Assembly: GCA_964501355.1 (NCBI GenBank)
Contig: CAZCSM010000007.1
Location: 1,096 to 65,095, forward strand
Length of the DNA: 64,000 nucleotides
Source: an uncultured Candidatus Saccharibacteria bacterium
Lineage (GTDB): Bacteria; Patescibacteriota; Dojkabacteria; CAZCSM01
Direction of reading: 5' to 3'
Below, one piece after another: positions 3,434 through 63,989 of this stretch. Made by a program: the position numbers and the translations under genes. The notes beneath the pieces were generated by a model. That model made no database searches, was not told where the DNA came from, and was given only the letters and a program-made list of their open reading frames with translations. The first letter of the stretch is position 1. Every line of letters begins with the position of its first letter.

Positions 3434-3643
3434 TTGGGGAAATAGATTATATTAACAATAGATTATATAACGAAATCTATCGTTTGTGAAATGAAATATG
3501 ATGGATGCCTCAGGGAAAACATATGAAAGTTGTGTTATTGCGGATTCTTGTATTAAGCTTATCGAAGTATATTGCGCGATTTCAGTATTTTTAACTGAGA
3601 AAAGAGATACCGGAATAAATCTGGCATGACACGGAGAGAACGT

Positions 3644-10876: not shown

Positions 10877-10904
10877 GTAGGGACAACCCTAGGGTTGTCC
10901 CTAC
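10877..10904. terminator. 28-bp palindrome GTAGGGACAACCCTAGGGTTGTCCCTAC immediately downstream of serS.
   Basis: Perfect palindrome. A near-identical copy (1 mismatch) sits at 45584-45611, immediately downstream of the DEAD-box helicase gene. Confidence 0.55.
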
Positions 10905-10920
10905 ATAATCACAATAGTTA

Positions 10921-12432: not shown

Positions 12433-12662
12433 TGTCATCCTCCGAACGTGTACTGAGCTTGTCGAAGTATGGAGAATCGGACACTATTTTTTATGTCAGA
12501 TTCTCTCTTCAGAGAATGACACGAAAAAATCCCAAACAAAAAATCGTCCCCAAATTGCAAAACATTAATTCTACAATTTAAGGACGATTTAGGTTTGTCA
12601 TGCTGAACTCGTTTCAGCATCTCGAATACTTACGGGATCCTGAAATAAATTCAGGATGACAC
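12433..12662. repeat. Cluster of three REP-like hairpin units in the serS / cys-repeat gene intergenic region.
   Basis: Units at 12433-12484, 12494-12522 and 12597-12662, each with GTCAT...ATGAC-type termini and internal perfect stems (gattctct/agagaatc; atgctgaa/ttcagcat; atcctgaa/ttcaggat). Confidence 0.5.
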
Positions 12663-15232: not shown

Positions 15233-15297
15233 ATCTCCATCTCCGCAATAATATTCTTCTGATTCCTCTTCACAAACATTACTGCAACCATCTCCAT

Positions 15298-18200: not shown

Positions 18201-18828
18201 CCAGCCCCGGATCCATATCTATTTCCGTTCCGTAAAATTCCGTTGTTAGGTATACATAACCATCGTATTCCACTGAGGAATATATTTCTTCGTAGCTATT
18301 TCCATCTAGAGTTATTGTCCAAGCATAATCACCATTGGAAAGTAGTTTAAGAAGAAAACCGTCATAATCACCAGGAACGGATGTTCGGATATCTTCTGAT
18401 ACACCTGTATCAAAATCTACAGAATCATAAAAGGCACCGGAAATATAAATGTTATCATCAGGGGATATGTAAATATCATTCGGCCAGAGATCTCCATCGG
18501 CGGAGGTTTCTACGAATTTAAACCAGATAATCTCACCGTTCTCATCAATCTTATTAATATACAGACATGTGTTTGTACAGGTGTATGTATCGTTCGTACT
18601 TTTATCAATGACTATTTCATCCCCATACAAATATCCGACGACGATTGTGTTATTTTCTGAATCTAGACTGCTAAGACCATTGTAATCGTAAGCACTAGTA
18701 CTGATGGAATTTACCCATTCGTAGTATATTTCGTCAGCGGCAAATGTAACTGATGTTGAAATCAACCCGAAGAACGCAAGACTTATTATCAAAAGGATTA
18801 TTTTTCCGAGTTTATACTTCATTTGCAA
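15298..18828 (-). CDS. N-terminal part of the same giant surface protein: signal peptide, SBBP-type beta-propeller repeats, Ig-like region, then the first cysteine-rich repeats. It ends at a frameshift.
   Basis: Signal peptide [30 protein letters not shown]. Many DFD-x-G...Y motifs of SBBP (seven-bladed beta-propeller) repeats. The last ~120 aa are the same cysteine-rich repeats as the downstream ORF. Removing the 2-bp 'tg' at ~15312-15316 restores ...[15 protein letters not shown]... in the frame of 12860..15232. Confidence 0.7.
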
Positions 18829-27300: not shown

Positions 27301-30300
27301 ACCATACATATTGTCACCATTTGAAGAAATGACACCATTCAAAGTAAGGGTGTTATCAACCGTCAAGTCTATAGCACCTCCGCCACTACCACCAATAAGA
27401 GAGGTAGAAGCACTAGAACCACAACTTCCTAGATGAGAAGGTCTAAAAACAGAACCATATATCTGACCCCCCTTATAAGGCCAATAACGAGTAGAAATTC
27501 CTCCATCTCGATACGATTCAGAAAAACCCCCATAACTACCTCCCGCCCGAAGATCTGTAAATCCAGGACCACAGTAAGAGGAATTTAATGGAAAGCGTGC
27601 CCCATAACCATATCCCATTCCATTTGCGTGTAAACTACCACCTGAATCAATCGTTAAATCAGAGACGGATAAATGTACTCCAAAATCATTCTCCCAATCC
27701 GTATCCATAGAATTGTAACTTATGCACCGCAATGTTCCTTGTGGTCCTATGTGTAAATTTTCAAAACTGTATGGATTATCCATTCCTCTTGCCCAAGTCT
27801 TTGCGTACAAAGTCATACCAGATGGAGACAGCAAACCAATATCAATATCTGATACACCTGCAATATCTCCATTAATCCCCAAATCAACACTTTCGATACC
27901 CAAAGCACCCTCACCAGTATATGTCAAGGTTCCATCAATTTTAGCAAATGGAACCGTTAAATCCCCCTGAAAGCCATCACCCGAATTTATCGTTAATATA
28001 GATGTTTCACCAAAGAAGATAACATCTCCATATCCTGTAAGATTTACACTTCCGAAACTATAATTCCCTTCAGGTACACCTGCAGATAAGCCCTGCACAG
28101 CATTATTGTCAACAAACAAGTCTCCATTATAACTTGGACTTGACGACAATGAAGACAACTGTTCTATGTATACTGTACCAGGACCTGATTCATTAGTACC
28201 TCTTGCATATATATTTGAAGTGCTTAATGGGAAACCCATATTATTAACATAATAAACTGCTATCCTGCCCCCTGCACCATCTCCATCACTTCCAGTGCCA
28301 GGATTCTTACCGTTTGCCTGAATAATTCCATCACCAACCAGATTCTGAGCTCGTAAAAATATTGAACCACCGGAACCAGCCCTGTCCTCACATCCAATGG
28401 CACTAGTCCTATAATACCCGCCACCATTACTGGTTATTGTTCCTAACAATGTTAATGAGCCGTTAACAGTTATTTCTATAGCACCGCCTCCAGCTCCGCC
28501 GTTACCACCCCTAGCACCGGCACCAGAACAATTAGACCCGCCACTACCAAGTAAGAGTGGTTCGTATATGCTACCGAAGGGATCTATTGTGTTAGATTCT
28601 CCATATCCGCCATATGTAGCACCAGCGTAAGACTTATAGCCAGGCCCCTTTTCGGATGTTCTAACCCGTCCATAACCTAATTCATTTGCATCTATAAAAC
28701 CTCCTGATAGCACTGTAATGTTTTCTGCGACCAACGGAACAACATAGTCATTCGTTTCATCTCTAGAATCGAGAGTGTCTCCAGACTCATAACTTCTAAT
28801 AAACAAGGAACTTCCACCGAACACTTCTATATCACCGAACACATATTGTGAAGTGGTGCCATATGCCCAAGTTCCCGAGAGCAAAGTTACGGCACCTGTA
28901 ACTGAATTACCAATCCGTAAATTAGTTACACCGCTCAAAGACCCCCCTACTATTAGATTTACACCATTCACATTCAAAGTGTCAGGTAGCAAATTTATAA
29001 ATGAACCATCTACTAGTAGCCCGGGAGAAGATGCATCTCCCGATAAAACTGAACTATCAGTTATTGTTAATGATGATGTCGAACCAATAAACCTTACATG
29101 ACCCCCTCTTGATAATTTAATCTTGGAGAAATTATAATCTCCGCTCAATACACCAGCATAGTTTGATTTAAGTAAATACCTGGCCTCGTCAAAAGTATCA
29201 GCTCCCTTGTAATGAACTATATCATTATTATCAACGTACAACTTACCCTGACTTGGATTATCAATCGCACGATCCTCTATATATACAGTACCCGCACCAG
29301 CACTTGAAACTTTGTCATCCCCATAATCTCCTCCATATGACCTTATAAAGTTCTGGACATTAGTGTCCGACATTGATAAACCGATTAGATTGTCGTAATA
29401 TATGGCAATTCTTCCACCGCCACCATCTGCAGTGCCGTAATAAGAACTAGTTCCTGATCCATTCGCAACAATCAAAGCACTGCTACTAAGCTCTAATAAC
29501 TCAGCATCTATATAAACACTTCCCCCAGAACCACGCAGTAAACCATTACTTGTAATCATTCCTGACAAACTCAGAGATCCTGTACCGTAAGTGTCTTTTG
29601 CGATAAGCTTAATCGCCCCACCACCTCTAGAATTGGCCAGTGTGCTTGAAGATCCTAAATCAGAGGGGGAAAATACACTTCCGTATACACCATTTTGGTA
29701 ATACGAACCATATCCGCCATAACTTGCTCCCGTGGTTCCGCGCCCCGCCCCCCTACCCGTACCATACCCCAATCCATTAGCATTAAATGTTGCATTCTCA
29801 TCAACCGTAATTGTTTTAGCTTCAAGTGTAACACCATAATCATCTGTCCAAACATCATTGGCATTATCGTATCCATAAAAATCAACAAAGCTGCCTCCTC
29901 TCACACGAAATGTTTCGAAAATATATTGTCCTCCAGTTCCCCAATTATTAGCGTGCAATCCCAAACGTGCCGTTGCCACAGCTCCAACATCGACATTGCT
30001 CACACCGCTTAGTGAGCCAAACCATTGCAAGTCTACGTTATTAACTGTGAATGTATCTATGCCCAAATAATTAAATGAACCACGCACAAGAATCTTTGTT
30101 GTGCCATCACCGATAATGGTCGAATTATTTGCTATACTTAAACTTGAGCCGCTACCTAAAAATTCCACATGACCATTTCTCTTTGTATCTATAGAAGAGA
30201 AATTGTAGATACCTGCTGTTATTGTAGCGGACTTTTCACAATTATTTCCGCCGACCAAACAAACCCTCGATGCGGCATCGACTATTAATTTTCCTTGTCC

Positions 30301-35097: not shown

Positions 35098-35232
35098 TTT
35101 TATCTGTATTCGGTTGATTAGTCGTTGAAGTCCGAAACGATAGCAGCCGGTTGCTATTTGTAAAAGGTTGATACTGGAAGGCGTGCTATTGTTTCGGAAA
35201 TTTTGGTTACTTTTGTTTGCAAAAGTAACATA
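35098..35232. repeat. ~135-bp structured intergenic repeat, type A, copy 1.
   Basis: Shares tgtattcggttg...gaagtc[ct]gaaac...ggttgctat...gtttc[ag]g...ttttggttacttttgtttgcaaaagtaaca with the copies at 39379, 58373 and 59400. Confidence 0.6.
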
Positions 35233-35252: not shown

Positions 35253-36074
35253 CTACAACCTCTCCAAAAACACCTTCGGCGATTGCAGAAAGTCTTTCAT
35301 TAACTGCACACTTTCAATGTCTTCGTATTTTATCAAGTTGAGCACTCCCTCCCTAATTTCATAGATCTCCGCATCAGGAAACGCCATCAACATCGGAGAA
35401 TGAGTTGCAATAATAAATTGTGCTCCAGTTTCAACTTGTTCTTTTATCATTGAAATAAGCGACATTTGTCTAATCGGAGAAAGTGGAACTTCAGGCTCAT
35501 CTAAAATATATAATCCTTCAGGAACAAATCTTTGAGAAAATAAATTCAGAAAGCTTTCGCCATGGGAAAAAGCATCCGGATTTTCACCATATCTTTTTTC
35601 CAGATTGTTAATCTGATTTTGCATTGCACTTGTTGAAAGGAGTTTCCCATAACCTGTGTATTTTTCAGAAAATTCTTGTTTCTGTTTTCTGAGTTCAATT
35701 TGATTTCTTGCAATTTGCCTTTGGAAACCAAAGAAGTCTTCTGCTCGCATGAAAAAACCTCGATGATTTCGGATACTCCAAGTTAGTTGAAGATTCTTTG
35801 CCAATCGACGTGCAGGTTCCAAGGTTTCGTCTTTCGTAGAATTGTCAACACCAATAATCGGAAGATCAGTTGCAACAGCAAGTGCTTCGAGAAGAGTTGA
35901 TTTTCCGGAACCATTTTCACCAACGAAAATAGTAACAGGTTTGGTAAATCGAAGTTCCTCAAGATTTCTAATCAAATCAAGAAAAAACGGATAATCCGTT
36001 TCTTCAATTTTTGATTTTAGTTTAAAAGATTGAAGCTGCATAAATTCAAAATTAAAACCATTAGTGTATGTCAT
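35253..36074 (-). CDS. Small ABC-type / AAA_21-like ATPase (predicted ATPase, COG3910-like). Start revised to MTYTNGF...
   Basis: Walker A VGENGSGKSTLLEAL; signature-like HGESFLNLF; Walker B LYILDEPEVPLSP; H-loop IIATHSP. The first 12 codons of the listed ORF (MYGARLRVKPAM) are encoded by a REP hairpin at 36070-36097, so the ATG at 36074 is the more plausible start. Confidence 0.65.
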   Translation of the reverse strand: MTYTNGFNFEFMQLQSFKLKSKIEETDYPFFLDLIRNLEELRFTKPVTIFVGENGSGKSTLLEALAVATDLPIIGVDNSTKDETLEPARRLAKNLQLTWSIRNHRGFFMRAEDFFGFQRQIARNQIELRKQKQEFSEKYTGYGKLLSTSAMQNQINNLEKRYGENPDAFSHGESFLNLFSQRFVPEGLYILDEPEVPLSPIRQMSLISMIKEQVETGAQFIIATHSPMLMAFPDAEIYEIREGVLNLIKYEDIESVQLMKDFLQSPKVFLERL

Positions 36075-36097
36075 TGCGGGCTTGACCCGCAATCTCG
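36070..36097. repeat. REP-like hairpin unit (GTCATTGCGGGCTTGACCCGCAATCTCG) between the GIY-YIG and ATPase genes.
   Basis: Same family as the units at 36520-36599. The stem is gcgggcttgacccgc. Confidence 0.5.
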
Positions 36098-36106
36098 CAC
36101 CGTACA

Positions 36107-36382
36107 TCAAAATAAATCTTCACCCAAATCCCGGAACTTCGGATTCGTCTCTCTAATTAAATCAATTTTCCATTCCCTCCTCCATTTCTTAATTCTCTTC
36201 TCTGCATCAATTGCATTGTTAATATTTGAGAAGGTATCGTAATATAGTAGCTTCTTCACATTATACCTTTTCGTAAAACCTTCAAAGTCTCCCGATTTAT
36301 GCTGATTAATTCTTTTTGTGAGATCGCTTGTTACACCAGTATAAAAAAACCGTATGCAATTTATTTGAAAGAATGTAAACAT
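36107..36382 (-). CDS. GIY-YIG nuclease family protein (UPF0213/YhbQ-like).
   Basis: FTFFQI...FFYTGVTSDLTKRINQHKSG...KKWRREWKIDLI matches GIY-x10-YIG plus the conserved R, H and KKW elements of small GIY-YIG proteins. Confidence 0.7.
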   Translation of the reverse strand: MFTFFQINCIRFFYTGVTSDLTKRINQHKSGDFEGFTKRYNVKKLLYYDTFSNINNAIDAEKRIKKWRREWKIDLIRETNPKFRDLGEDLF

Positions 36383-36426: not shown

Positions 36427-36599
36427 GTGTCACCCCGCACAGGACGAAGTCTGTGATGCGGGGTCTCGCACTTCACACCTAACTAACAGTTAATACAAAA
36501 AATCAGTAAACAATATACTCCGAGATCGCGGGTCAAGCCCGCGATGACATCACGACAGTCTTTTATTTCTGTCATCCCGCGCTTGACGCGGGATCTCGG
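36427..36599. repeat. Three REP-like hairpin units: 36427-36468, and an inverted pair at 36520-36547 / 36570-36599.
   Basis: gtgtcaccccgcacaggacgaagtctgtgatgcggggtctcg; and ccgagatcgcgggtcaagcccgcgatgaca ... tgtcatcccgcgcttgacgcgggatctcgg, two units in opposite orientation in a BIME-like arrangement. Confidence 0.6.
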
Positions 36600-37310: not shown

Positions 37311-39320
37311 TTATTTCCACAAACTAAACTTTTTCGTCAAACTGTCAATCTTCTCCTTATCCCCGAACATTCCAATTGCATAATGCTGAAGATCATCAAC
37401 ATCCTTATCAGCTAAAACTTCTGCAATATCTTCATCCTTTTGAACTTCCAAATGTTCTTTCAGAAATTCGTAAAACATTAAATCTGATTCCTTCAATTGT
37501 TCCCGAAGATGTGCAAATTGTCCGGGTTTTGCGGAAAGAACAACGACAGGATATTGGCAAGAACGATCAAAACTTTCACCATCTTCCGTTTCAAACTCAG
37601 GCCCAGAGAAAAAGTTCTCATCAATCTTGTGGCCCAAGTATGCAGAAACATGACCAATTGAATTTAGGACTTTCCAATTCTCCAATTCATTATTCACGAT
37701 AATAACAATCTTCTTTGACAAATCCTGTTTGAAAGAGTCCTCCTTATGTTCACTTTGTTCTTCAACTGAATCCTCTTCTACAGAGTGAATTCTTCTAACA
37801 TTCTTGGCCACACCTTCAAAACTATGATTTTCGGCTGTGAGCTGACCGCCGTCCGCTGATAGCTGATCCACAGGCTTCATTAATGGGAAAGCGATAACTT
37901 CTCGCAAAGTTCTTGAGCCGGTAATTAGTGCTGCAAATCTATCAATTCCAATTCCCGTTCCGGTTGCAGGAGGCATTCCGTATTCAAGAGCTTCTACATA
38001 ATCCCAATCGTTGCTCATAGCCTCTTCATCCCCCTCCTCCTTGTTTTTAATCTGACCCTCAAATCGCTCCCTCTGATCAATTGGATCATTAAGTTCCGTG
38101 TACGAGTTGCTCAACTCAAAACCATTAACAATTAGTTGGAACATTTCCGTATATCTTGAATCCTCTGATTTTTTTGCCAAAGGTTTCAATTCAATCGGAT
38201 AATTCAGAACAAATGTTGGTTGAATAATCTTTGGTCGAGTTGTAGCTTTGAATAATTCATCGATCAACTTTCCTCGTTCTGTCACACCTTCTGTGCTATA
38301 ACCACGTTTCTCCATTTCTGCGGCGAGAGTTTCTGCTGTTGGGAAATCGTTCAGGTCAATTCCTGAATGTTGCAGAACAATATCATGGAACATAACTTTT
38401 GGATATGGAGGAGTAAAATCAAGTTGATTATCGTCATGTTCGAATTGAAGAGTTCCAATAGAATTTTTTATTACATAGGGAATCATCTCTTCGTGCATTC
38501 GCATATTATCCTCATAATCAGCAAACGCCCAATAATATTCAAGCATGGTGAACTCAGGATTATGCTGACGATCAACTCCTTCATTTCGAAAAGCTCTGCC
38601 CATATCGAAAACTTTTTCGAATCCACCAACGAGAAGTCTTTTCTGCCATAACTCTCCTGCACAAATTCTCAAATGAACATCAAGATCATAAGCATTCAGG
38701 TGAGAATCAAAAGTCTTTGCCATAGCACCGGAAGAAACAGTTTCAAGAATCGGTGTTTCAACTTCTATAAAACCCTGATCTTGAAGAAATTCTCGAAGAT
38801 AACGTAAGACCTTTCCTCGAACAACAATCTTCTCCCGTTGATCTGGATTGATGTTAAAATCTAAATATCGTCTTCGGTATCTCGCTTCCTCATCTTTCAA
38901 ACCAAAGTGTTCATTTGGCAAAGGTCGAAGTGACTTTGTTAACAATTTCAGATCTTCAACCATGATGGAAATCTGTCCCGTTTTTGTTCGAACAATTTCT
39001 CCACTTGCCTGAATGAAATCACCAAGATCGAAGAGTTTTAAGTTATCGTAAAAGTTTTCGATGTTTTCCTGTTTAATAAAGAGTTGAATCTCCCCAGTCT
39101 CATCGGCAATATCCCAGAAGGTTATTACTCCATGACCTCGAAGACTTTTAATCCGTCCAACAACGAAAGCCGTTTGACCTTCTAGTTCATCAAATTTATT
39201 TAAAATATCCCCACAGGTATGAGTTCTTTTTGATCGAGCGGGAAAAGTTTCGATTTCAAGACTTTGTAATTTTTGAAGTTTTTCCAAACGAACTTGTCTA
39301 AATTCTTCTAATGTCGCCAT
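37311..39320 (-). CDS. lysS: Lysyl-tRNA synthetase (class II) with a ~185-aa C-terminal extension.
   Basis: OB-fold anticodon-binding N-terminus; class II motifs (FRNEGVDRQHNPEFTMLEYY, GGFELSNSYTELNDP, GIGIDRF). The canonical end ...VIAFPLMKP is followed by an acidic linker and a ~135-aa alpha/beta-like domain (KKIVIIVNNEL...PVVVLSAKP...HYAIGMFGDKEKIDSLTKKFSLWK). Confidence 0.85.
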   Translation of the reverse strand: MATLEEFRQVRLEKLQKLQSLEIETFPARSKRTHTCGDILNKFDELEGQTAFVVGRIKSLRGHGVITFWDIADETGEIQLFIKQENIENFYDNLKLFDLGDFIQASGEIVRTKTGQISIMVEDLKLLTKSLRPLPNEHFGLKDEEARYRRRYLDFNINPDQREKIVVRGKVLRYLREFLQDQGFIEVETPILETVSSGAMAKTFDSHLNAYDLDVHLRICAGELWQKRLLVGGFEKVFDMGRAFRNEGVDRQHNPEFTMLEYYWAFADYEDNMRMHEEMIPYVIKNSIGTLQFEHDDNQLDFTPPYPKVMFHDIVLQHSGIDLNDFPTAETLAAEMEKRGYSTEGVTERGKLIDELFKATTRPKIIQPTFVLNYPIELKPLAKKSEDSRYTEMFQLIVNGFELSNSYTELNDPIDQRERFEGQIKNKEEGDEEAMSNDWDYVEALEYGMPPATGTGIGIDRFAALITGSRTLREVIAFPLMKPVDQLSADGGQLTAENHSFEGVAKNVRRIHSVEEDSVEEQSEHKEDSFKQDLSKKIVIIVNNELENWKVLNSIGHVSAYLGHKIDENFFSGPEFETEDGESFDRSCQYPVVVLSAKPGQFAHLREQLKESDLMFYEFLKEHLEVQKDEDIAEVLADKDVDDLQHYAIGMFGDKEKIDSLTKKFSLWK

Positions 39321-39378: not shown

Positions 39379-39560
39379 TTGTTATCTGTATTCGGTTGTT
39401 AGTCATTGAAGTCTGAAACAAGCCATTCCGGTAGTTATATGTATTTGATTGCTATTTGTCGGAACTAATTCTCCTCTCTGTCACTTCGTGACATCTCTCC
39501 TCCATAGGAGGAAAGTCTTGTTTCAGGAATTTTGGTTACTTTTGTTCCCAAAAGTAACAC
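39379..39560. repeat. Structured intergenic repeat, type A, copy 2 (with a ~45-bp internal insertion).
   Basis: ttatctgtattcggttgttagtcattgaagtctgaaacaag...cttgtttcaggaattttggttacttttgttcccaaaagtaacac. Confidence 0.6.
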
Positions 39561-39577
39561 CATATATTAAAATTCCT

Positions 39578-39620
39578 GGATCCCGGATCACGCTCACAAG
39601 TTCGCTGTCCGGGATGACAC
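39578..39620. repeat. REP-like hairpin unit (reverse orientation).
   Basis: The reverse complement reads gtgtcatcccggacagcgaacttgtgagcgtgatccgggatcc, the same architecture as the unit at 8961-9004. Confidence 0.55.
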
Positions 39621-40306: not shown

Positions 40307-40381
40307 GTGTCATCTCGAATTTATTTCGGGATCTCGTGAGCAAACATCAGACGGGATCCTGAAACGAGTTCAGGATGACAG
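40307..40381. repeat. REP-like double-hairpin unit.
   Basis: gtgtcatctcgaatttatttcgggatctcg...gggatcctgaaacgagttcaggatgacag. The second stem is atcctgaa/ttcaggat, as in the unit at 12597-12662. Confidence 0.5.
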
Positions 40382-40792: not shown

Positions 40793-41257
40793 CTATTTGC
40801 AACGAATTGAAACAACTTCAATTTCTTGTTCGCCACCATCAGGTCGAACAATATAAACAGTCTCACCTTTCTTCGCTCCAAGCAAAGCTTGTCCAAGAGG
40901 TGATTCATACGAGATTCTACCTTCTTTTGGATCCGTTTCGCTAGCACCGACAAGTCGCAATTCCTTTTCCCCCATTCCCATATTTACAGTAACCCAAGCA
41001 CCCAGAGTAACGTAATCAGTATTGCAGATGTTTTCATCAATCAGTTCAGCCTTTTCCAGAATCATTTCAATTTCCTCAATTCGTCCTTGAACTTCGTCTC
41101 GTTCTTGCATTGCCTCAGCATAGGTGGCATCTTCCATCTGATCCTTCATGGTGCTATCTGCCAGCTTATCTGCAATCTTTCCCGTAAGAATAGAATTAAG
41201 TTCTTCTAATTCCTTTTTCAACTCTGATTTATGTTCTTTTGTTATGTATGTTCCCAT
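40793..41257 (-). CDS. GreA-family transcript cleavage factor paralog (diverged coiled-coil tip; possibly Gfh-like).
   Basis: GreA N-terminal coiled coil plus C-terminal FKBP-like domain (GAWVTVNMGMGEKELRLVGASETDP). The tip motif is KDQMEDATY rather than the canonical DLSENAAY. Confidence 0.65.
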   Translation of the reverse strand: MGTYITKEHKSELKKELEELNSILTGKIADKLADSTMKDQMEDATYAEAMQERDEVQGRIEEIEMILEKAELIDENICNTDYVTLGAWVTVNMGMGEKELRLVGASETDPKEGRISYESPLGQALLGAKKGETVYIVRPDGGEQEIEVVSIRCK

Positions 41258-41317
41258 TTTATTTTTTATGAATTAACCTACAAGTCTAACGTGACCTTCG
41301 ATATATCATTACATATT

Positions 41318-41779
41318 TTAGTCAACCTTAACGACTCGAAAAATGCGATCTCCGGTAGGAAGTGTTATCGTTACGTCCTCTCCTGGCTTCTTTCCCATAA
41401 GAGCAGAACCGATTGGAGATTCGTTTGAAATTCTCCCGCCAATTGGATCCGCTTCCATTGCACCAACTACTTCATAGACAGTTTCCTTCCCTGCAATTGA
41501 AACGGTAACTTTGCTGCCTAATGAAACTTCACCATTTGAAGATTTTTCAATAATTTCTGCTCGAGAAATCATATCTTCAAGATCTCTGATTAACTTTTCA
41601 TTTAGAGTTCGATCTTCAAGAGCTGCCTTGTATGCAGCATTTTCGGACAAATCTCCCATTCGGCGAGCATCCTCAATTGCATCTGCAATTTTAGTTCGAA
41701 CAGTAGTTAAACGTTCTTGTAATTCTTGTTTTAATTTTTCCAACCCAATTCGGGTTAATTGTAATTTTGTATCTTTCAT
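41318..41779 (-). CDS. greA: Transcription elongation factor GreA.
   Basis: Canonical GDLSENAAYKAA tip motif and C-terminal domain (VSLGSKVTVSIAGKETVYEVVGAMEADP). Confidence 0.85.
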   Translation of the reverse strand: MKDTKLQLTRIGLEKLKQELQERLTTVRTKIADAIEDARRMGDLSENAAYKAALEDRTLNEKLIRDLEDMISRAEIIEKSSNGEVSLGSKVTVSIAGKETVYEVVGAMEADPIGGRISNESPIGSALMGKKPGEDVTITLPTGDRIFRVVKVD

Positions 41780-45577: not shown

Positions 45578-45583
45578 ATTCCT

Positions 45584-45646
45584 GTAGGGACAACCCTAGA
45601 GTTGTCCCTACCATTTATAATCCCAACGCAAGTTGGGATTTTTTAT
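45584..45646 (+). terminator. Tandem terminators: the 28-bp palindrome GTAGGGACAACCCTAGAGTTGTCCCTAC followed by a hairpin atcccaacgcaagttgggat plus a T-run.
   Basis: The second hairpin is followed by ttttttatt. The first palindrome is a near-copy of the one after serS. Confidence 0.6.
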
Positions 45647-48241: not shown

Positions 48242-48484
48242 TTTAATAATTTTTGAATTAACAATTGTCCTCTAACGGAAGGTGCCGCTACACGAGCAAA
48301 TTGTTTTTCAAAAAATGAAAACAAAAAGCTCCCCGTCGGGAGCTATTAATATCGAGGAAAAATATCCAGCATTAACCCGACGAGCCTAAATCGTGGTCGT
48401 CGTTGTTACGTTGAATAAGTTTTGAAGATTTATGAAGCTTTTCATAGTGTGTAGATTATATCCTATAACAAATGGGGTTGCAAC

Positions 48485-49558
48485 CTAAACTTCAACAATC
48501 TCACTCGCCGCTTTTCTCAAACGATTCATCACGGCAAGTCCAAGCTCGATGTCCTCCAACCCCTCGCTTATTATAACATCAACACCTTCTTCATCAAATT
48601 CGCGAAGAACCCGAAACATATTTCTGCCAAAACTTTCCGGGTCATTTCCAATATATTTGACAACATCTGCTTTGAGATTAATATTAGGTTTCGTAGTCAT
48701 TACACCAATCTTCTTCCCTTCTGATTTGTGGGTATAAATAAGCTCAGAGATTTTCATGAGAACTCGCTCATCATCACCTTCGACTAAGATAATGTTCGCT
48801 TTCGGTGCATAATGAGTGTATTTCATTCCAGGAGAACGTGCCTCAACTTTTTCTTCCACCTTTCCCGACTGAACAACTTGATGTCTATTCACATCTCCTA
48901 ACACAGATCCAAGGTTCTCAAAGGTAATTTTACCGGGACGAAGAAGAGTTACGGGATTTGTTGTGGTATCAACAACAGTTGATTCCAAACCGACATCGGA
49001 CGAACCACCATCAATTATCATGGGAATTCGCCCATCCATATCTTGCAAAACATGATCCGCAGTTGTCGGACTTGGTTTTCCGGAAAGATTTGCAGATGGA
49101 GCTGCAATTGGCACACTGGCAGCTTCGATTAATGCTTTTGCAATTTCATTGGATGGCATACGGATCGCAACAGTATCCATACCTCCAGTTGTAATTAACG
49201 GAACAATTTTAGATTTTTTGAAAACCAGAGTCAATGGACCGGGGAAGAATTTCTCAATTAGAGTCTTTGCATTATCGGTTACTTCAGAAACCAGTGGATA
49301 AATCTGATCTAATTTTGATATGTGTAGAATCAAAGGATTATCAGCAGGTCGCCCTTTTGCCTTAAAGATTTTCATAACAGCCTCAGGATCTAAGCCATTA
49401 GCTCCAAGTCCGTAAACAGTTTCCGTCGGGAAAGCAACAACCTCCCCGGATTTAATAAGCTCAGCAGCTTCGCGAACTTTATTTAAATCAGGATTGTTAG
49501 GATTAAGCTTGATTAGTTGGGTGTACATAAAACAGATCTCATTCTTGCCAATATACAA
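48485..49558 (-). CDS. tsaC: L-threonylcarbamoyladenylate synthase, Sua5 type (YrdC domain plus Sua5 C-terminal domain).
   Basis: VVAFPTETVYGLGANGLDPEAVMKIFKAKGRPADNPLILHI signature, ~350 aa with the Sua5 C-terminal domain. The true start may be the Met at 49528. Confidence 0.85.
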   Translation of the reverse strand: MYIGKNEICFMYTQLIKLNPNNPDLNKVREAAELIKSGEVVAFPTETVYGLGANGLDPEAVMKIFKAKGRPADNPLILHISKLDQIYPLVSEVTDNAKTLIEKFFPGPLTLVFKKSKIVPLITTGGMDTVAIRMPSNEIAKALIEAASVPIAAPSANLSGKPSPTTADHVLQDMDGRIPMIIDGGSSDVGLESTVVDTTTNPVTLLRPGKITFENLGSVLGDVNRHQVVQSGKVEEKVEARSPGMKYTHYAPKANIILVEGDDERVLMKISELIYTHKSEGKKIGVMTTKPNINLKADVVKYIGNDPESFGRNMFRVLREFDEEGVDVIISEGLEDIELGLAVMNRLRKAASEIVEV

Positions 49559-49564
49559 TACATC

Positions 49565-49933
49565 TCATACAGATGGAGAAACGTCATGCTGAAAGGCGTC
49601 CAATAGCTTCAAACTACTGAAAACCTCATCTATTCTAGATGGCGATAATTTTCCAATGAAGTCGCCTAAATCCTTTTTGTTAACTAACGAAATATGAGAT
49701 GGGATTATTATACTGCGTTTGTCTAAATTACCTTCGCCAGCATCTAATAAAATGTTCCCAACCTCATACGCTTTTTTCATATTGGTCGATATTTCGCACA
49801 TTACAATTGATTCAATCCTGCTGTTGTTTATAATCGTATCCTGTATCACGAGCTGAGGATGGATAATACCTCGCATATTTCCATGTTCATCCATTGTGGG
49901 TGCCCAAAAGATATCTCCTCGAAAGATTTTCAT
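49565..49933 (-). CDS. MazF/PemK-family endoribonuclease toxin-like protein. No obvious cognate antitoxin.
   Basis: MKIFRGDIFWAP...HPQLVIQD...ESIVMCEIST...IIIPSHISLVNKKDLGDFIGKLSPSRIDEV follows the PemK/MazF SH3-like barrel pattern. The 190 bp upstream contain only 13-23-aa ORFs. Confidence 0.55.
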   Translation of the reverse strand: MKIFRGDIFWAPTMDEHGNMRGIIHPQLVIQDTIINNSRIESIVMCEISTNMKKAYEVGNILLDAGEGNLDKRSIIIPSHISLVNKKDLGDFIGKLSPSRIDEVFSSLKLLDAFQHDVSPSV

Positions 49934-50124
49934 TATTATTCTAAATTCATATGAAATGAGAATATTAAGACCAGACTTTGCACATTATACGCAAAAACGC
50001 TAGAATCATAAATAGTAATAGTTGAGAAAGGGAATGTCATTTAGCAATCTCTGAAAATAAATTAGATTGCTTCATCGTAAACTCTTCACAATGACAAAAC
50101 GCACTCATTGAACAGCTCTACAAC

Positions 50125-50385
50125 CTAAACACCCACAATCTCACTTGCCGCTTTTCTCAATCGATTCATTACAGCAAGTCCAAGCCCAATACCTTCCAAT
50201 CCTTCACTTATTATCACACGAATACCTTCTTCATCAAATTCACGAAGGACCCGAAACATATTTCTTCCAAAACTTTCCGGATCATTTCCAATGTATTTGA
50301 CCACGTCTGCCTCGAAGTTAACATTTTGTTTCGTAGTTATTACACCAACCTTCATACCATTTGATTTGTGGATAGAAATAAGCAC
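50125..50385 (-). pseudogene. Degenerate duplicate of the 3' ~260 bp of tsaC/sua5 (gene fragment).
   Basis: About 85% nucleotide identity to 48485-48750. The translation KVGVITTKQNVNFEADVVKYIGNDPESFGRNMFRVLREFDEEGIRVIISEGLEGIGLGLAVMNRLRKAASEIVGV aligns with the C-terminus of the intact Sua5. No upstream Sua5 N-terminal coding sequence is present. Confidence 0.65.
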
Positions 50386-50565
50386 AGAGATTTTTATTAT
50401 TTAATATAGCTTCGCGATTAGATGAAGTTTTTGCGTAGCAAAAATTGGGAAGAACCTCGAGCCGAGGGTCGAACCATCTAGTCGCTGTTATATTCGGGTC
50501 GAACGAATGGGAGAAGCGCAGCGACCCCGACGACTGTAAGGAGGAGAGAAAATTTCGAGCCCATT

Positions 50566-52018: not shown

Positions 52019-52148
52019 TGTCTCATTCGGGGTCTGGGGAGATGTGTGTTTCCTCGGGCAAAGATGACTAGAATATCTCAGACTGCAAACGGGAAAATCC
52101 ACATCTCTCCAGCGGTTTTGGTTACTTTTGTCGTCAAAAGTAACAGAA
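52019..52148. repeat. ~130-bp structured intergenic repeat, type B, copy 1.
   Basis: tcattcggggtctggggagatgtgtg...cacatctctccagcggttttggttacttttgtcgtcaaaagtaacag, with the same 3' hairpin as type A. Confidence 0.55.
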
Positions 52149-55829: not shown

Positions 55830-55930
55830 ATTCTGGGCAGAAATCTACTAATATCATTGTAAAGAGAATTGAACATTTAATCAACAAATGCGCAAGAGGC
55901 ATCGCCTCTTGCGCATTAAATCTTTATGAT

Positions 55931-58372: not shown

Positions 58373-58509
58373 TGTTACCTGGATTTCGGTTGTTAGACGT
58401 TGAAGTCTGAAACAACAGATGTCGGTTGCTATCTGTTTCAAGGTCGTGCTTGGAGGACGTTCTGTTGTTTCAGAAATTTTGGTTACTTTTGTTTGCAAAA
58501 GTAACAGAA
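58373..58509. repeat. Structured intergenic repeat, type A, copy 3.
   Basis: The internal 13-bp perfect stem ctgaaacaacaga / tctgttgtttcag encloses the conserved cggttgctatctgtttcaaggtcgtgcttggag. The 3' hairpin is ggttacttttgtttgcaaaagtaac. Confidence 0.6.
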
Positions 58510-58513
58510 CTAT

Positions 58514-59269
58514 TTATCTTCCCAGCATATCCTTCACAATCGAACTTCCAATATTCGCAGCAAAGTCGCCGGATCTCAACCCACCATGTTCACCCTGATT
58601 AGCACCGGAGGCTTCCCAGATTCTATTCGCCATTCGAGAGAAAGGAAGTGTTTGCAAATAAACTTTTCCAGGACCTGTCAAGAGTGCAAAGAATAAACCT
58701 TCGCCACCAAACAGAGTTCTCTTAAACCCACCGACAAACTTAATATCATAATTAACAGTTGATTCGAAAGCCACGATACAACCGGTATCAACACGAACTG
58801 ATTCACCTGCTTTAAGTTCCATCTCAACAAAATTGCCGCCGGCATGAATAAAGGCAGAGCCGTTTCCTGTTAAGCTTTCCAAAATGAAACCTTCTCCGCC
58901 GAAAAATCCGGCACCAAGTCTTTTCGTCAGCGCAATATCAACATTCACACCTTCCGTACAGCAAAGGAAAGAATCTCTCTGGCAAAGAATTTCTGTTCCA
59001 TTTATTTTTACCACTTGAAGTTTGCCCGGAAACGGCGAAGCGAAACCAACTTCTCCACCATTTTCACCAGCTTGGAAAGTTGTCATGAATAAACTTTCAC
59101 CACCAAACACTCTTTTTATTCCGCCCATTAGCCCACCCTTCATTTCAGCCTCCATTTCTACTGCACCTCGCATATACATCATAGATCCGGCTTCCGCGTA
59201 CATCTTTTCTCCCTTATCTAAATTCACCACAAGAGCCTGCATATTGTCACCAAGAGTTTGCGTCTTCAT
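58514..59269 (-). CDS. AIM24 / TIGR00266 (DUF124) family protein.
   Basis: Gly-rich beta-helix-like repeats GGESLFMTTFQAGENGGEVGFASP...FFGGEGFILESLTG...LFGGEGLFFALLTGPGKVYLQTLP typical of the AIM24 family. Start set at MKTQ (59269); the track ORF extends to 59329. Confidence 0.65.
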   Translation of the reverse strand: MKTQTLGDNMQALVVNLDKGEKMYAEAGSMMYMRGAVEMEAEMKGGLMGGIKRVFGGESLFMTTFQAGENGGEVGFASPFPGKLQVVKINGTEILCQRDSFLCCTEGVNVDIALTKRLGAGFFGGEGFILESLTGNGSAFIHAGGNFVEMELKAGESVRVDTGCIVAFESTVNYDIKFVGGFKRTLFGGEGLFFALLTGPGKVYLQTLPFSRMANRIWEASGANQGEHGGLRSGDFAANIGSSIVKDMLGR

Positions 59270-59399
59270 TTCTAAAAATTTCGAATAAATTACTACTAAT
59301 AATTTATAACAGAAGAGATGAGAAAACAAATTTAAAGAAAGGGTTTCGAATTTTGAATAACGAGTAATGAAGATCTTTCGGAAAGTTGTGTTTCTGTCT

Positions 59400-59535
59400 T
59401 TGTTACCTGTATTCGGTTGTTAGCAGTCGAAGTCTGAAACAAGTGATTCCGGTTGCTATCTGTTTCAAGGTCGTGCTTGGAGGGAGTTCACTTGTTTCAG
59501 GACTTTTGCATACTTTTGGTCACAAAAGTATGAGA
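59400..59535. repeat. Structured intergenic repeat, type A, copy 4.
   Basis: The stem ctgaaacaagtga / tcacttgtttcag shows compensatory changes relative to copy 3. The 3' hairpin variant is gcatacttttggtcacaaaagtatgag. Confidence 0.6.
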
Positions 59536-61307: not shown

Positions 61308-62567
61308 TCAATGACTAGCTCCGTTTCCCGCCACATATCCACTACTCCACGCCCATTGCAGATTATACCCGCCACTATCACCCGCAATATCAACAACCTC
61401 ACCGCAAAAATGAAGACCCGGAACAATTTTCGATTCCATAGTTTTAGGATTAATTTCCGTAACGGAAACACCGCCCATTGTAAACTGAGCTTCATCCCAG
61501 CTTCGAACAGAGACTATTTTAAATTTGTACTTTTTCAATAAATCAACAATCGCCAATCTATCTGCCTTTGAAATCTCCCCTGCTTTTTTGGAAATATCAT
61601 ACCCGGCGAATTCCAGAATTGCCGGAGCAATCTTCTTTTGCATTAAACCAACAAAGCTGAAGCCCAAAGATTTTTTCGGATTAGCTTCCCACCGATCACG
61701 AAGAATTGAATCTAGTGTATTCTTGTCATACTGTGGAAAGAAATCAAGAAATACATCAACGGATGGTTTGTTTTCCAAGTTTAGTACTCTTGAAATTTCA
61801 AAGCTCAAACGCATAATTGCCCAAGCCGATAAGCCAAAATGAGTAAAAAGAACCGTGCCTTCATCTTCCGAAAGTCTTGCGTCACCATCATATGCTGAAA
61901 CTCCGGCTTCAATCTTTACCCCCTGAAGTTTGTTCACAAGAGGCTTGAATGGAGAATCTACATCCAGACCGGATGATACAGGGTATAAGTCCTCAATCGT
62001 ATGACCGAGATTCTTGGCGAAAGAGTAACCATCGCCAGAACTACCAAAAGCAGAATAAGTTTTTCCACCAGTAGCGATAATAACCTTATCCGATTTTAAA
62101 ATTTTACCGTTAAACAAATGCGTTACAAATTCATCTCCAACCTTTTTTATCTCTGTAACTTTTGACTGGAATAAAATCTCAACGCCGAGACTTTCCAGTT
62201 CATATGTCAAAACATCAAGAACAGAATCCGCTTGATCAGAAAGAGGAAAAACACGCCCCTTATCCTCAACCTTGGTTTCCAGTCCGAGTGAGTGGAAGAA
62301 ATCTAATGTATCCCAATTGGAAAATTGCGCAAAAACCGAGGCTGCAAACTTGGGAAACTTGCCGTGATAATTTTCCCATGATACTTCCTGATTTGAGAGA
62401 TTACACCGGCCATTTCCGGAAATTAAAATCTTTTTCCCAAGTTCATTCTTCTTTTCTAAAATAGTTACCTTCGCACCATTTCTCGCTGCAACAATTGCAG
62501 CTGTCATGCCGGCAGGACCGCCACCGATTATAACAATGCTTAATTTTGATTGTTTAATGTTTTTCAT
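61308..62567 (-). CDS. HI0933/BaiN-like flavoprotein (NAD(P)/FAD-dependent oxidoreductase, TIGR00275).
   Basis: IVIIGGGPAGMTAAIVAARNGAKVTILEK...ISGNGRCNLSN and C-terminal GLHFCGEVVDIAGDSGGYNLQWAWSSGYVAG. Confidence 0.8.
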   Translation of the reverse strand: MKNIKQSKLSIVIIGGGPAGMTAAIVAARNGAKVTILEKKNELGKKILISGNGRCNLSNQEVSWENYHGKFPKFAASVFAQFSNWDTLDFFHSLGLETKVEDKGRVFPLSDQADSVLDVLTYELESLGVEILFQSKVTEIKKVGDEFVTHLFNGKILKSDKVIIATGGKTYSAFGSSGDGYSFAKNLGHTIEDLYPVSSGLDVDSPFKPLVNKLQGVKIEAGVSAYDGDARLSEDEGTVLFTHFGLSAWAIMRLSFEISRVLNLENKPSVDVFLDFFPQYDKNTLDSILRDRWEANPKKSLGFSFVGLMQKKIAPAILEFAGYDISKKAGEISKADRLAIVDLLKKYKFKIVSVRSWDEAQFTMGGVSVTEINPKTMESKIVPGLHFCGEVVDIAGDSGGYNLQWAWSSGYVAGNGASH

Positions 62568-62597
62568 TTATAAAACAGCTTTTCAAATATTCTTTTC

Positions 62598-62722
62598 CTT
62601 TTGGGGTCTGGGGGGATGTATGTTTTCTCGGGTAAAGATAAATTCATTATTTCAAAATACAAACGGAAAATGCTACATCCTCCCAGCACTTTTGGTTACT
62701 TTTTGTGTAAAAAGTAACAGAA
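62598..62722. repeat. Structured intergenic repeat, type B, copy 2.
   Basis: ggggtctggggggatgtatg...tacatcctcccagcacttttggttactttttgtgtaaaaagtaacag. The stem shows compensatory changes relative to B1. Confidence 0.55.
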
Positions 62723-62783
62723 CTTTTCAGAGCAAACCTCACCCTACCCCTCTCCTATTAGGAGAGGGAACAGCACTCTACCT

Positions 62784-63989
62784 TCAATTCACTTCGGCAA
62801 CAGTATTATCTTTCAATAAAAATCCCAATATCAAATAACCAATAGATGCAATTAAGAACAGAACCCAATATTCATAATTCAGAAAAATCAAAACTGCTGC
62901 AACAATCGACATCAATGTCCTACCGATATCAAGAGCTACCTCCCGTATTATAACAGGCCACATCGGATTGTCATGCTTTGCATCAGCATACACAATAACG
63001 TCAATTGGAACTGAATAAGCTGTGCGGAAAAGACTGAAGAGCGAATCTAAAAAGAATATGTGTAGACCATTCTGAACAAACAGCTTTCCAATCCAGATAA
63101 TTCCATTAAACACAGCGCTAAACTTATCAATTCCGCCAACCTTCTTTTCATCAGACAACTTACCGATAAAGTATGTGAAGATGGCTAATGCGAGTGAAAT
63201 GGATGATGATAAAACCCCAAGTTTCAAAATATTGTTAATGAAGAGGAAGATGAATATTCCCCAAACAACATCTTGAATTATACTTTCAAAACCAATTACA
63301 AAATAATCTGGAAAAAGCCTTTTCTCTTTTTCATACTCTTTCCGAAAATCTCTTGTATTAATATCACCAATATCCAAATCAAGTTCTCCAAAGTTCAAAG
63401 CAATTGAAGAGAGAACAAACATGAAGAATGCAATCACAAAAAGAACGTTGTATCCTCCGAAATCTTCAATGATCAATGCGGAAAGCGTAGGACTAACAAT
63501 ACCGATTATCGAACCTACAATACTTAGAAATCCCATCTGCTTCCCCATTGTGTCCGATTTGTTCTTTACGGAAAAAACAGTATGGTACGGAATCCAATAA
63601 ATATTTGTCATTATCGCTGCTGTGAAAATGTTGGGAATTAGCCACCACAGATTGTTTTGAGAAAGGGCATAAAGAGAAATCGAGATTGCGGACAAAGCAG
63701 ATCCTGTGATTAATAAAGTCTTTGAGCCGATTTTATTAACAAGTTTTGCAACAGGGATAATCGTTATGAATTTCACAAGGTAGATTGCTGCTTGGCGGAG
63801 AAGAACTAAAGCAAAGGATGTTGTTTCTGAAAACCCAAAAGCTTTGAACACGTTAAAAAGAAAAATATTTCCGAAAATTCCAAGGAAGCTATATCCAAAA
63901 TTTCGGAGGATTGATCCCAAATAAAGAAACTTCGGAACACCGTCTGTTACTTTTGATAAGAAGTGATCACTACGAAACCGAGTACTCAT
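62784..63989 (-). CDS. MFS transporter.
   Basis: 12-TM hydrophobicity pattern with an MFS-like loop between TM2 and TM3. Confidence 0.7.
   Translation of the reverse strand: MSTRFRSDHFLSKVTDGVPKFLYLGSILRNFGYSFLGIFGNIFLFNVFKAFGFSETTSFALVLLRQAAIYLVKFITIIPVAKLVNKIGSKTLLITGSALSAISISLYALSQNNLWWLIPNIFTAAIMTNIYWIPYHTVFSVKNKSDTMGKQMGFLSIVGSIIGIVSPTLSALIIEDFGGYNVLFVIAFFMFVLSSIALNFGELDLDIGDINTRDFRKEYEKEKRLFPDYFVIGFESIIQDVVWGIFIFLFINNILKLGVLSSSISLALAIFTYFIGKLSDEKKVGGIDKFSAVFNGIIWIGKLFVQNGLHIFFLDSLFSLFRTAYSVPIDVIVYADAKHDNPMWPVIIREVALDIGRTLMSIVAAVLIFLNYEYWVLFLIASIGYLILGFLLKDNTVAEVN

Follow-up and report, generated by a model that had tools for sequence, protein, structure and literature searches.

An uncultured Candidatus Saccharibacteria bacterium (assembly GCA_964501355.1; Dojkabacteria in the GTDB lineage) carries a family of short intergenic elements, exactly six copies of which, A1 to A4 of type A and B1 and B2 of type B, lie in a 64,000-nt stretch of contig CAZCSM010000007.1 (positions 1,096 to 65,095; hereafter the window, to whose own numbering all coordinates refer unless another locus is named). 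All copies share one common fold on the + strand, in which two stems, H1 and H2, and a pseudoknot are kept by compensatory base changes, and the six form a local branch of a widespread class for which Rfam has no family and the searched literature yielded no description. While structured intergenic repeats and non-coding RNA (ncRNA) motifs are known as a kind, the architecture, the cross-phylum 3' module and the triplex-type covariation are new compared with Rfam 15 and the searched literature. Tentatively, we favour reading the element as a nuclease-resistant, end-defining RNA module that would resemble the repetitive extragenic palindromes (REPs) of enterobacteria, with ends that may be locked in triplexes, in principle like the elements for nuclear expression (ENEs).

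One fold kept by compensatory changes

From 5' to 3', the element consists of a purine leader, a 3-nt turn, H1, a pseudoknot strand, a U3-5G linker and H2; H1 is a near-perfect stem of 10-14 bp that encloses a variable core, and H2 is a terminal hairpin with a UUUU:AAAA tract. The window copies are ~110-190 nt long, and together with three copies of a relative, L132, they show the same predicted fold, H1 round the core followed by a short linker and H2. An independent repeat search of the window returned all six copies as families D8-D11, and the H2 hairpin pattern gave 10 matches, corresponding to five copies on both strands, where 0.26 were expected. A reading made from the letters of the window without database searches (the sequence-only reading) had proposed the six copies, and direct inspection found its coordinates and all quoted stem sequences to be correct, including the compensated GCATAC/GTATG pair in the hairpin of A4. 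As it had also claimed, every copy sits between open reading frames (ORFs) in the ORF list of the window, a 110-aa ORF overlapping B2 (62506-62838) being probably spurious. The two subtypes that it distinguished are both seen, but A and B are a single family since relatives hold intermediates, and the orientation that it described as inconstant does vary relative to adjacent genes, although all six copies lie on one strand (+, C-rich).

Its further claims, that the stems carry compensatory changes and that secondary structure is under selection, were borne out by covariation tests in the window lineage and in other lineages. The window-lineage set comprised five window copies and three from relatives, A2 being omitted because its insertion breaks the alignment. 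Here 206 of 206 pair cells (100%) were paired compared to 73.8% after shuffling (0/500), 20 of 26 pairs had changed on both sides, and the covariation score was 0.80 compared to 0.06-0.17 for slid registers. The 20 cross-phylum seeds, which had to have an H1 helix of at least 9 bp and whose H2 core was set by the search pattern, had 97.3% of cells paired compared to 73.6% after shuffling (0/500), a covariation score of 0.64 compared to 0.06-0.16 for slid registers, and both-side changes in all 13 H1 pairs. As an independent control, 69/221 matches, compared to 15/195 shifted windows, had a helix of at least 10 bp that ended directly ahead of the linker. Since G.U pairs exceeded A.C in H1 (26:7 in 47 members), one defined strand folds, rather than a symmetric duplex palindrome; because of the G.U pairs, the + strand folds 4-11 kcal/mol more stably than the - strand in five of the six copies.

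Directly 5' of the U-run, 3-4 nt are complementary to the H2 loop and pair with it, forming an H-type pseudoknot. In the window the pairs are GGAA/UUCC, GAC/GUC, CAC/GUG, CGG/UCG (with a G.U) and AAA/UUU, and in L132 they are AGAC/GUCU and GAGC/GCUC. This pairing was never used in selecting sequences. Among the independent metagenomic matches listed (n=114), 2.86 of 4 bases paired compared to 1.78 +/- 0.075 for permuted partners, the corresponding values for the genome matches listed (n=113) being 2.78 and 2.23 +/- 0.05. The three pseudoknot pairs (a/a') were formed in 96.7% of cases in the 20 seeds and in 100% in the window lineage, with 3-4 pair types per position, and the pseudoknot was also present in copies that the covariance model described below found without the search pattern. 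The two helices stand in the order S1-L1-S2-S1'-S2', each of them backed by covariation, which in H2 is that of the free pairs.

The 3' module has the topology a-L1(UUUUG)-H2 5' strand-a'-H2 3' strand, which would bring the U-rich linker into the major groove of H2, alongside the A-tract in parallel orientation. In three lineages the tract includes a G, and the linker carries a C at the corresponding position (UCUUU/AGAAA, UUCUUU/AAGAAA and UUUCUU/AAAGAA). This agreement occurs in the parallel register only and is the signature that substitution of U.A-U by C+.G-C in a triple helix predicts; covariation thus supports well a putative 3' triplex with the linker parallel to the purine strand of H2. 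The lengths of linker and tract were weakly correlated (r = 0.21). Watson-Crick pairing of the linker with the A-tract was ruled out, as the C-bearing variants fit no other register than the parallel one. Triplexes of the parallel pyrimidine motif are a typical feature of H-type RNA pseudoknots, with bacterial cases documented in riboswitch aptamers only (about two canonical triples), and long triplexes are RNA stability elements in eukaryotes and viruses (PMC7583470).

A second signal of this type was seen at the 5' end, where the leader repeats the opening bases of H1 in mirror order (identity 0.82 when aligned as a mirror and 0.72 in the direct register) and the mutual information between leader and H1 is highest on the mirror diagonal. 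Reading the leader as a direct repeat, with alternative pairing to the 3' strand of H1, was rejected as the weaker register. The leader obeyed the rules for G.G-C, A.A-U and U.A-U triplets at 0.81, compared to 0.63 +/- 0.03 for permuted leaders (P<0.0005), and in the window lineage at 0.65 compared to 0.49 (P=0.02). Leader and H1 also differ concordantly between type A (GAAG-UCU-GAAA) and type B (GGGG-UCU-GGGG). These patterns are suggestive of a leader that lies on the base of H1 as an antiparallel stack of G.G-C and A.A-U triplets.

Distribution across phyla and in close relatives

The class was traced in two scans. The first, of one genome per species with the H2 pattern alone, gave at least 117 loci; the genome matches listed came from many phyla, GC-rich hosts included, and the bodies upstream of the matches listed fell into 82 unrelated clusters. 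The second covered metagenomes with a pattern obtained by generalising over the window and L132 and gave at least 120 loci, and many of the matches listed had the full architecture, GGGG-UYU-GGGG[H1 5'] ... [H1 3']CCCC-AR-NNS-UUUUG-NN-UAC-UUUUG-N4-CAAAAGUA-NN. For full-architecture members among the matches listed, the core motif GAGCG was counted in 41/102 versus 9/82 and the core motif GCGAGUUU in 19/102 versus 0/82. A metagenome scan specific to type A returned zero matches, and the type A body is therefore lineage-restricted.

A covariance model (R1) was built on an alignment (alignment A3) of 20 members, none of which came from the window lineage. In the window it recovered the copies over their full length on the + strand, scoring B2 at 75.3 bits (E 1e-17), B1 at 73.0, copy A3 at 60.4, A4 at 58.0, A1 at 55.6 (E 1e-12) and the 3' part of A2 at 38.9 bits, the low score of A2 being due to a core insertion that breaks the match. 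The remainder of the window yielded reverse-strand echoes of the six copies (up to 32 bits) and nothing else above 9.4 bits. The model also found the three copies of L132, one copy in another relative, L128, in which H2 has drifted (GUACCUUUU/AAAAGGUAC) with the fold retained, and further clustered copies without the search pattern in other lineages, such as three within 10 kb in L173. Alignment and model may serve as a seed for annotating this repeat, which is missing from current databases. The named genomes with the full architecture belong to Candidatus Falkowbacteria, uncultured Gammaproteobacteria and Clostridia. The copies in Clostridia are minimal versions of 62 nt, with a small loop closed by H1, and the existence of such members makes the core a dispensable payload.

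Taking all hairpin-pattern matches as one family was ruled out by two groups of matches. Many of those in Bacteroidota, Xanthomonas and Acinetobacter had the 3' module only, which by itself extends to many more phyla than the full architecture. The Acetobacteraceae metagenome-assembled genome (MAG) bog_899 (L015, L016, L025, L056, L063, L068, L069, L074, L086, L102 and L107), which is GC-rich, contains dozens of long AT-rich palindromes in which AACTTTTG...CAAAAGTT stems enclose an H2-like hairpin (GGTTACTTTTTTTCAAAAAAGTAAC); on some contigs they sit between almost every gene pair, and they probably belong to another type of repeat that has the hairpin in common. In Gammaproteobacteria (L090, Xanthomonas hortorum, ~7130-7470; L012, L078 and L067), several modules follow one another within a single intergenic tract, namely a box GGCGCCC-UGUCUGAGCG-NA-GCGAGUUU-GGGCGCC, the 3' pseudoknot module, a GC hairpin of the CCGCGCGACAGCGCGG type and GGAUUCCCGCCUUCGCGGGAAUGAC palindromes.

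Homologs of TrmD in Dojkabacteria (64%) and the 'Patescibacteria group' (63%) suggest that the organism is probably a member of Patescibacteria/the candidate phyla radiation (CPR), and syntenic loci were fetched by means of the AIM24-family protein encoded between A3 and A4. L132, whose AIM24 protein is 82% identical, carries copies orthologous in position to A4 and A3 as well as a third, A2-like copy. Its A4 ortholog carries the same unusual GCATAC/GTATG H2 as A4 and a wholly different H1 (TTGGGGTGAATAAA/TTTATTCACCCCAA compared to CTGAAACAAGTGA/TCACTTGTTTCAG) that is still perfectly paired. On the other hand, six copies within 28 kb of the window include several that are polymorphic, the positions of A3, A4 and B2 being empty in L129 and L128 and that of B1 in L253 (TrmD 86% identical) and L256. 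Since both orthologous copies and empty sites were seen, the family combines long-term retention under structural selection with gain and loss. Deriving the boundaries of the B1 insertion from the empty site of L253 failed, as the spacers are too diverged to align. Two Logan short-read contigs of the same organism break inside H2, L001 (1-30) in that of A4 and L127 (945-976) in that of A3, which is expected at a repeat that breaks assemblies. A GC-rich, perfect hairpin of 14 bp lies in the window at 55887-55917, in the spacer after a 764-aa ORF, and the apparently orthologous spacer of L132 (5482-5650) bears an element copy, E3, instead; this swap could reflect functional equivalence or a hot spot.

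Candidate roles and known families

The comparison with Rfam proposed in the sequence-only reading found no family that matches the elements, in the window or at 38 loci of other lineages: Rfam 15 at gathering threshold returned one tRNA only from the whole window, the element regions at E<=10 gave only chance miRNA-like matches far below threshold, and 18 + 20 loci of other lineages gave nothing at the elements. Searches of the literature by sequence and by concept did not find the element, which is not in the gLM2 preprint either, and annotated plasmids, phages and E. coli genomes gave no informative match. Of the two identities put forward by the sequence-only reading, a novel structured ncRNA stands as far as structure and absence from Rfam go and is made plausible by the strand-specific fold, but no promoter or terminator was found. 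The miniature inverted-repeat transposable element (MITE) is not supported in the strict sense, since neither a transposase nor a target-site duplication nor inverted repeats general to the ends were found, although the behaviour is repeat-like in that the element is multicopy, breaks assemblies and is variably present between relatives. That reading had missed the pseudoknot, the triplex-type covariation, the leader/H1 mirror and the membership in a cross-phylum class.

Like MITEs such as Correia/NEMIS, RUP and ERIC, the elements are short, non-coding and multicopy, would fold into a long stem once transcribed and are polymorphic for presence and absence. MITEs, however, have their own terminal inverted repeats matching a parent insertion sequence (IS) and target-site duplications, neither of which was found here. 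The six copies share no terminal inverted repeats, the 5' end and H2 not being reverse complements, and a TGTTAC hexamer shared in three type A copies is absent from A1, B1 and B2. No direct repeats were seen flanking any copy, the exact ends of the elements not being fixed. Nor can H1 be an inverted repeat recognised by a transposase, since its sequence differs between copies.

Under the reading that we favour, the + strand would be transcribed, either from a putative promoter or by read-through, and the transcript would fold into a compact body with both its 5' and its 3' end locked in triplexes. Such a body may resist exonucleases and so define or stabilise RNA ends, in a role analogous to that of REP and bacterial interspersed mosaic element (BIME) stabilisers and of triple helices of the ENE/MALAT1 type, with H1 carrying variable inserts. 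The family would multiply and be lost like a repeat, persisting copies being under purifying selection for the fold. REPs stabilise upstream mRNA against 3' exonucleases, and REPs and BIMEs are likewise multicopy, structured, intergenic repeats with a bias to gene 3' ends, mosaics with palindromic modules and variation between strains. They differ in being simple, imperfect palindromes of 20-40 nt with a GTAG foot that are species-specific and linked to REP-associated tyrosine transposases (RAYTs), whereas the present elements measure 60-190 nt, have a pseudoknot, triplex-type covariation and a leader, and share their 3' module across phyla. No GTAG foot or simple palindrome was found in them, and no RAYT (Y1_Tnp) in the 64-kb window. 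With the ENE + A-tract triple helices of PAN, MALAT1 and plant and fungal transposable-element RNAs, the elements share a U.A-U run with an occasional C+.G-C and a position at an RNA 3' end. This likeness suggests protection from decay, and some ENEs sit in transposable-element transcripts. In an ENE, however, a U-rich internal loop clamps a 3' A-rich tail, whereas here the A-tract forms the 3' strand of a hairpin, and a linker lying upstream supplies the third strand. To our knowledge, ENEs are not known in bacteria.

Several observations weigh against this reading. Four of the six window copies are antisense to both neighbours and A4 has no co-directional upstream gene, and these five copies therefore cannot stabilise flanking mRNAs. 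No sigma-70-type promoter or -10 box was found at a fixed distance from the copies, and the window scan gave no canonical terminator at the copies and no terminator-like site at H1 or H2. We know of no natural RNA with runs of purine-motif triplets, which are better established for DNA, and the 5' feature is therefore at least as compatible with single-stranded DNA (ssDNA) as with RNA. H1, with very few G.U pairs and hardly any mismatches, is unusual for an RNA stem. The support for H1 and H2 is partly circular, since seeds were chosen for an H1 helix and the H2 core, while that from the pseudoknot, the NN pairs and the triplex signals is not. Finally, the geometric feasibility of the full pseudoknot, with an L1 of 5 nt and an L3 of 1 nt, is a matter of argument.

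We regard it as possible, if rather doubtful, that the elements constitute an undescribed, multi-phylum class of bacterial RNAs of 60-190 nt with both ends locked by triple helices. In this class, an antiparallel purine clamp would sit on the base of H1 at the 5' end, and an H-type pseudoknot with a U.A-U / C+.G-C helix of 4-6 triplets would close the 3' end. If true, it would be the first bacterial counterpart of ENE/MALAT1-type elements, a nuclease-resistant frame with variable payloads that spreads as a repeat. More generally, if the element acts as RNA, it would represent a new, widely distributed structural class of bacterial ncRNAs and the first long major-groove triplex in bacteria outside riboswitch aptamers, as well as a possible natural end-protected frame of use in engineering RNA stability.

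Alternatively, although we consider it unlikely, the element may be a non-autonomous mobile ssDNA element, similar to REP/RAYT systems or to the palindrome-associated transposable elements (PATEs) of IS200/IS605, moved by an HUH/Y1 transposase supplied in trans. The hairpins, the pseudoknot and the two triplexes would then be recognition structures in ssDNA, and by extension the scaffold might be an orphan omega-RNA with the 3' flank as its guide. Several of the features above would suit such an element: clustered multiple copies here and in other lineages, assembly breaks inside H2, empty sites in close relatives, strand-specific folding, an H1 that is nearly pure Watson-Crick, two triplex motifs that are classical for DNA, and conservation that ends right after H2, as at the right end of a transposon. 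PATEs are comparable in being gene-less, with strand-specific hairpins, a structured scaffold that ends at the boundary and proteins supplied in trans, and gene-less PATEs carrying omega-RNAs have been documented (PMC10055086). The present elements differ from them in that no TnpA/TnpB linkage, no transposon-adjacent motif (no conserved 4-5-nt motif stood at a fixed position upstream), no definable target duplication and no Rfam match to IS605-orfB or HEARO were found. A Pfam search of 40 ORFs of the window detected no transposase, TnpB, IscB, reverse transcriptase or integrase, and neither TnpA, TnpB, IscB nor an integrase recurred near ~245 loci. L128 does carry a Y1_Tnp gene in an IS200 copy, but a link through this gene was rejected because the similarity of its end hairpins was at chance level (best 22.3 bits compared to a shuffled mean of 21.7). 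The window folding strand, moreover, is the C-rich lagging strand (leading-strand template), opposite to 37 of 44 genes (84%), and IS608-type elements are known for the opposite strand bias. Nor would orthologs that keep the fold despite full turnover of H1 be expected of decaying selfish insertions, and the cross-phylum 3' module in hosts of very different GC content points to long residence under selection. Should the element nevertheless be of this kind, it would imply a mobilisation system that reads pseudoknotted or triplex DNA, without described precedent. Either way, the family explains recurrent assembly breaks in MAGs of the CPR and of other groups.

Quite unlikely, in our judgement, is that the copies are paralogous small RNA (sRNA) genes, transcribed independently and acting in trans or as ribonucleoprotein scaffolds, with a triplex-capped frame that gives stability or binds a conserved protein and a variable H1 and core that set targets or partners. 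Such genes would be free-standing between other genes in any orientation, as the elements are, and the strongly conserved tertiary-type features, the variable payload in a constant frame, the retention in orthologs and the core motifs GAGCG...GCGAGUUU enriched among the matches listed are in keeping with them. The missing promoter signal at a fixed distance and the missing terminator count against sRNA genes, however, and the variable stem is fully base-paired and hence not free for target pairing. Copy number and presence also vary between close relatives, and no co-occurring protein was found: clustering of ORFs within 0.7 kb and 3 kb of ~245 loci gave no protein family in more than 7 loci, the top clusters being housekeeping genes. 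A sigma-54 or Bacteroidetes-type promoter in H2, suspected by eye, was rejected since its spacing is not constant and Proteobacteria and Firmicutes have the motif as well.

An improbable role is that of an unconventional terminator or insulator at gene ends, with hairpins that block read-through between neighbouring or convergent genes. Among the matches listed, elements are indeed enriched at gene 3' ends and in convergent spacers, the upstream gene being co-directional in 64/99 members, the arrangement convergent in 30%, and H2 lying at most ~16 nt from the convergent stop codon in a quarter of the members with a convergent downstream gene. In the window, H2 is likewise close to convergent stop codons (8 nt in A3, 23 nt in A1), canonical terminators are rare, and the 14-bp GC-rich hairpin at 55887-55917 stands where L132 has E3. 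However, H2 is AU-rich and followed by variable sequence, without a U-tract after H1 or H2 on either strand, and A4 lies in a divergent promoter region; termination would also leave the pseudoknot, the triplex covariation and the leader unexplained.

Finally, a riboswitch-like regulator in a 5' untranslated region (UTR), with a triplex pseudoknot aptamer such as that of SAM-II or preQ1-II, is highly improbable, as the flanking genes are functionally unrelated, no orientation rule emerged from the 99 members listed, a co-directional downstream gene was present in only 45 of these 99 and in two of the six window copies (A4, and B1 at 250 nt), and no Rfam riboswitch matched. The 3' module nevertheless shares with the triplex H-type pseudoknots of several aptamers (SAM-II, SAM-V and preQ1-II) and of telomerase RNA the order S1-L1(U-rich)-S2-S1'-S2', an L1 parallel to the purine strand of S2 and isomorphic U.A-U / C+.G-C substitution (PMC7583470). 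Riboswitch pseudoknots, in contrast, have 2 canonical triples, bind ligands and occur in 5' UTRs of specific genes, whereas here 4-6 consecutive triples are predicted, no gene association was found and the module stands at the 3' end of a larger repeat.

Positions of the copies and neighbouring features

All six elements are given on the + strand. A1 (35098-35230) is of type A with a 5' extension of ~30 nt; by alignment and pair count, its leader TGAAG, turn and H1 5' strand CCGAAACGATAG occupy 35126-35143, followed by the H1 3' strand CTATTGTTTCGG, pseudoknot strand AAA and linker TTTTG (35186-35205) and by H2 (35206-35229), in which GTTACTTTTG and CAAAAGTAAC flank a loop TTTG that pairs with the AAA at 35198-35200. 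A2 (39379-39559), also of type A, is distinguished by a core insertion of ~50 nt that forms two small hairpins. Its leader GAAGT and H1 5' strand CTGAAACAAG are at 39408-39422, its H1 3' strand CTTGTTTCAG, pseudoknot strand GAA and linker TTTTG at 39517-39534, and its H2 at 39535-39558, where the loop TTCC gives four pseudoknot pairs (GGAA/TTCC).

Copy A3 (58373-58506), the one under which the family had been described in the sequence-only reading, ends 8 nt from the stop codon of a convergent AIM24-family gene (58514-59275, - strand). The mirror repeat GAAG-TCT-GAAA is found in its leader TGAAG, turn and H1 5' strand CTGAAACAACAGA (58401-58419); the H1 3' strand TCTGTTGTTTCAG, pseudoknot strand AAA and linker TTTTG follow at 58461-58481, and H2 at 58482-58505 (GTTACTTTTG / TTTG / CAAAAGTAAC). 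A4 (59400-59533) lies between the divergent AIM24-family and DJ-1/PfpI genes, with leader CGAAG, turn and H1 5' strand CTGAAACAAGTGA at 59428-59446, H1 3' strand TCACTTGTTTCAG, pseudoknot strand GAC and linker TTTTG at 59488-59508, and the compensated H2 variant CATACTTTTG / GTCA / CAAAAGTATG at 59509-59532, the pseudoknot pairs being GAC/GTC. The 5' extension of type A, ~30 nt long (TTTGTTAYCTGTATTCGGTTGTTAG), spans 35098-35125, 39379-39407, 58373-58400 and 59400-59427. It contains CGGTTGYTA, a motif that recurs in the core (CCGGTTGCTA), is partly present in the L132 copies and lies outside the cross-phylum model.

B1 (52019-52145) is downstream of trmD and shows the class signature GGGG-TCT-GGGG in its leader CGGGG, turn and H1 5' strand CTGGGGAGATGTG (52028-52046); the H1 3' strand CACATCTCTCCAG, with one G.U, pseudoknot strand CGG and linker TTTTG are at 52100-52120 and H2, with loop TCGT, at 52121-52144. 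B2 (62598-62719), between the HI0933-like and MFS genes, has leader TGGGG, turn and H1 5' strand CTGGGGGGATGTA at 62602-62620, and H1 3' strand TACATCCTCCCAG (one G.U), pseudoknot strand CAC and linker TTTTG at 62674-62694. Its H2 (62695-62718) is the variant GTTACTTTTT / GTGT / AAAAAGTAAC, in which a G-C pair is replaced by U-A, with pseudoknot pairs CAC/GTG.

The genes flanking the six copies encode an APH kinase, an AAA ATPase, a class II aminoacyl-tRNA synthetase (aaRS), NUDIX, TrmD, sortase, AIM24-family and DJ-1/PfpI proteins, an HI0933-like flavoprotein and an MFS transporter. Adjoining A1, the ORFs of an AAA_21/AAA_15 ATPase and of a small GIY-YIG nuclease (35253-36382) have 4 nt in common and may be a defence-like gene pair. 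The aaRS, of the D/K/N type, is fused to a C-terminal DUF2000 domain (37311-39320). Right after A2, at 39571-39618, lies a palindrome of a second, unrelated REP-like type, (C)GGGATCCTGAAAC-N-GTTCAGGATGACA or ATGTCATTGCGGGCTTGACCCGCAAT, which also occurs at 12596-12661, 40351-40380, 3602-3631 and 36068-36097 / 36521-36550. Modules of the same style (GGATYC...GRATGAC) stand 20-40 nt after class members in several other lineages, forming BIME-like mosaics.

Elsewhere in the window, a perfect palindrome of 29 nt, GTAGGGACAACCCTAGGGTTGTCCCTAC, occurs twice at a distance of 35 kb (10877-10905 and 45583-45611), two GreA paralogs are encoded in tandem (40793-41779), and a four-helix protein of the 23S-rRNA-intervening-sequence / bAvd-like type is encoded at 5852-6220. 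The 3' part of the Sua5/TsaC gene is duplicated over 277 nt with 84% identity (48481-48757 and 50121-50397), the two copies flanking a MazF/PemK-like toxin gene (49565-49933). On the - strand, ~16 tandem coding repeats of ~102 nt (13919-15675) extend across a 790-aa (12860-15232) and a 1176-aa ORF (15298-18828); next come an ORF of 805 aa and a giant one of 3911 aa (21385-33120), and the products look like surface proteins.

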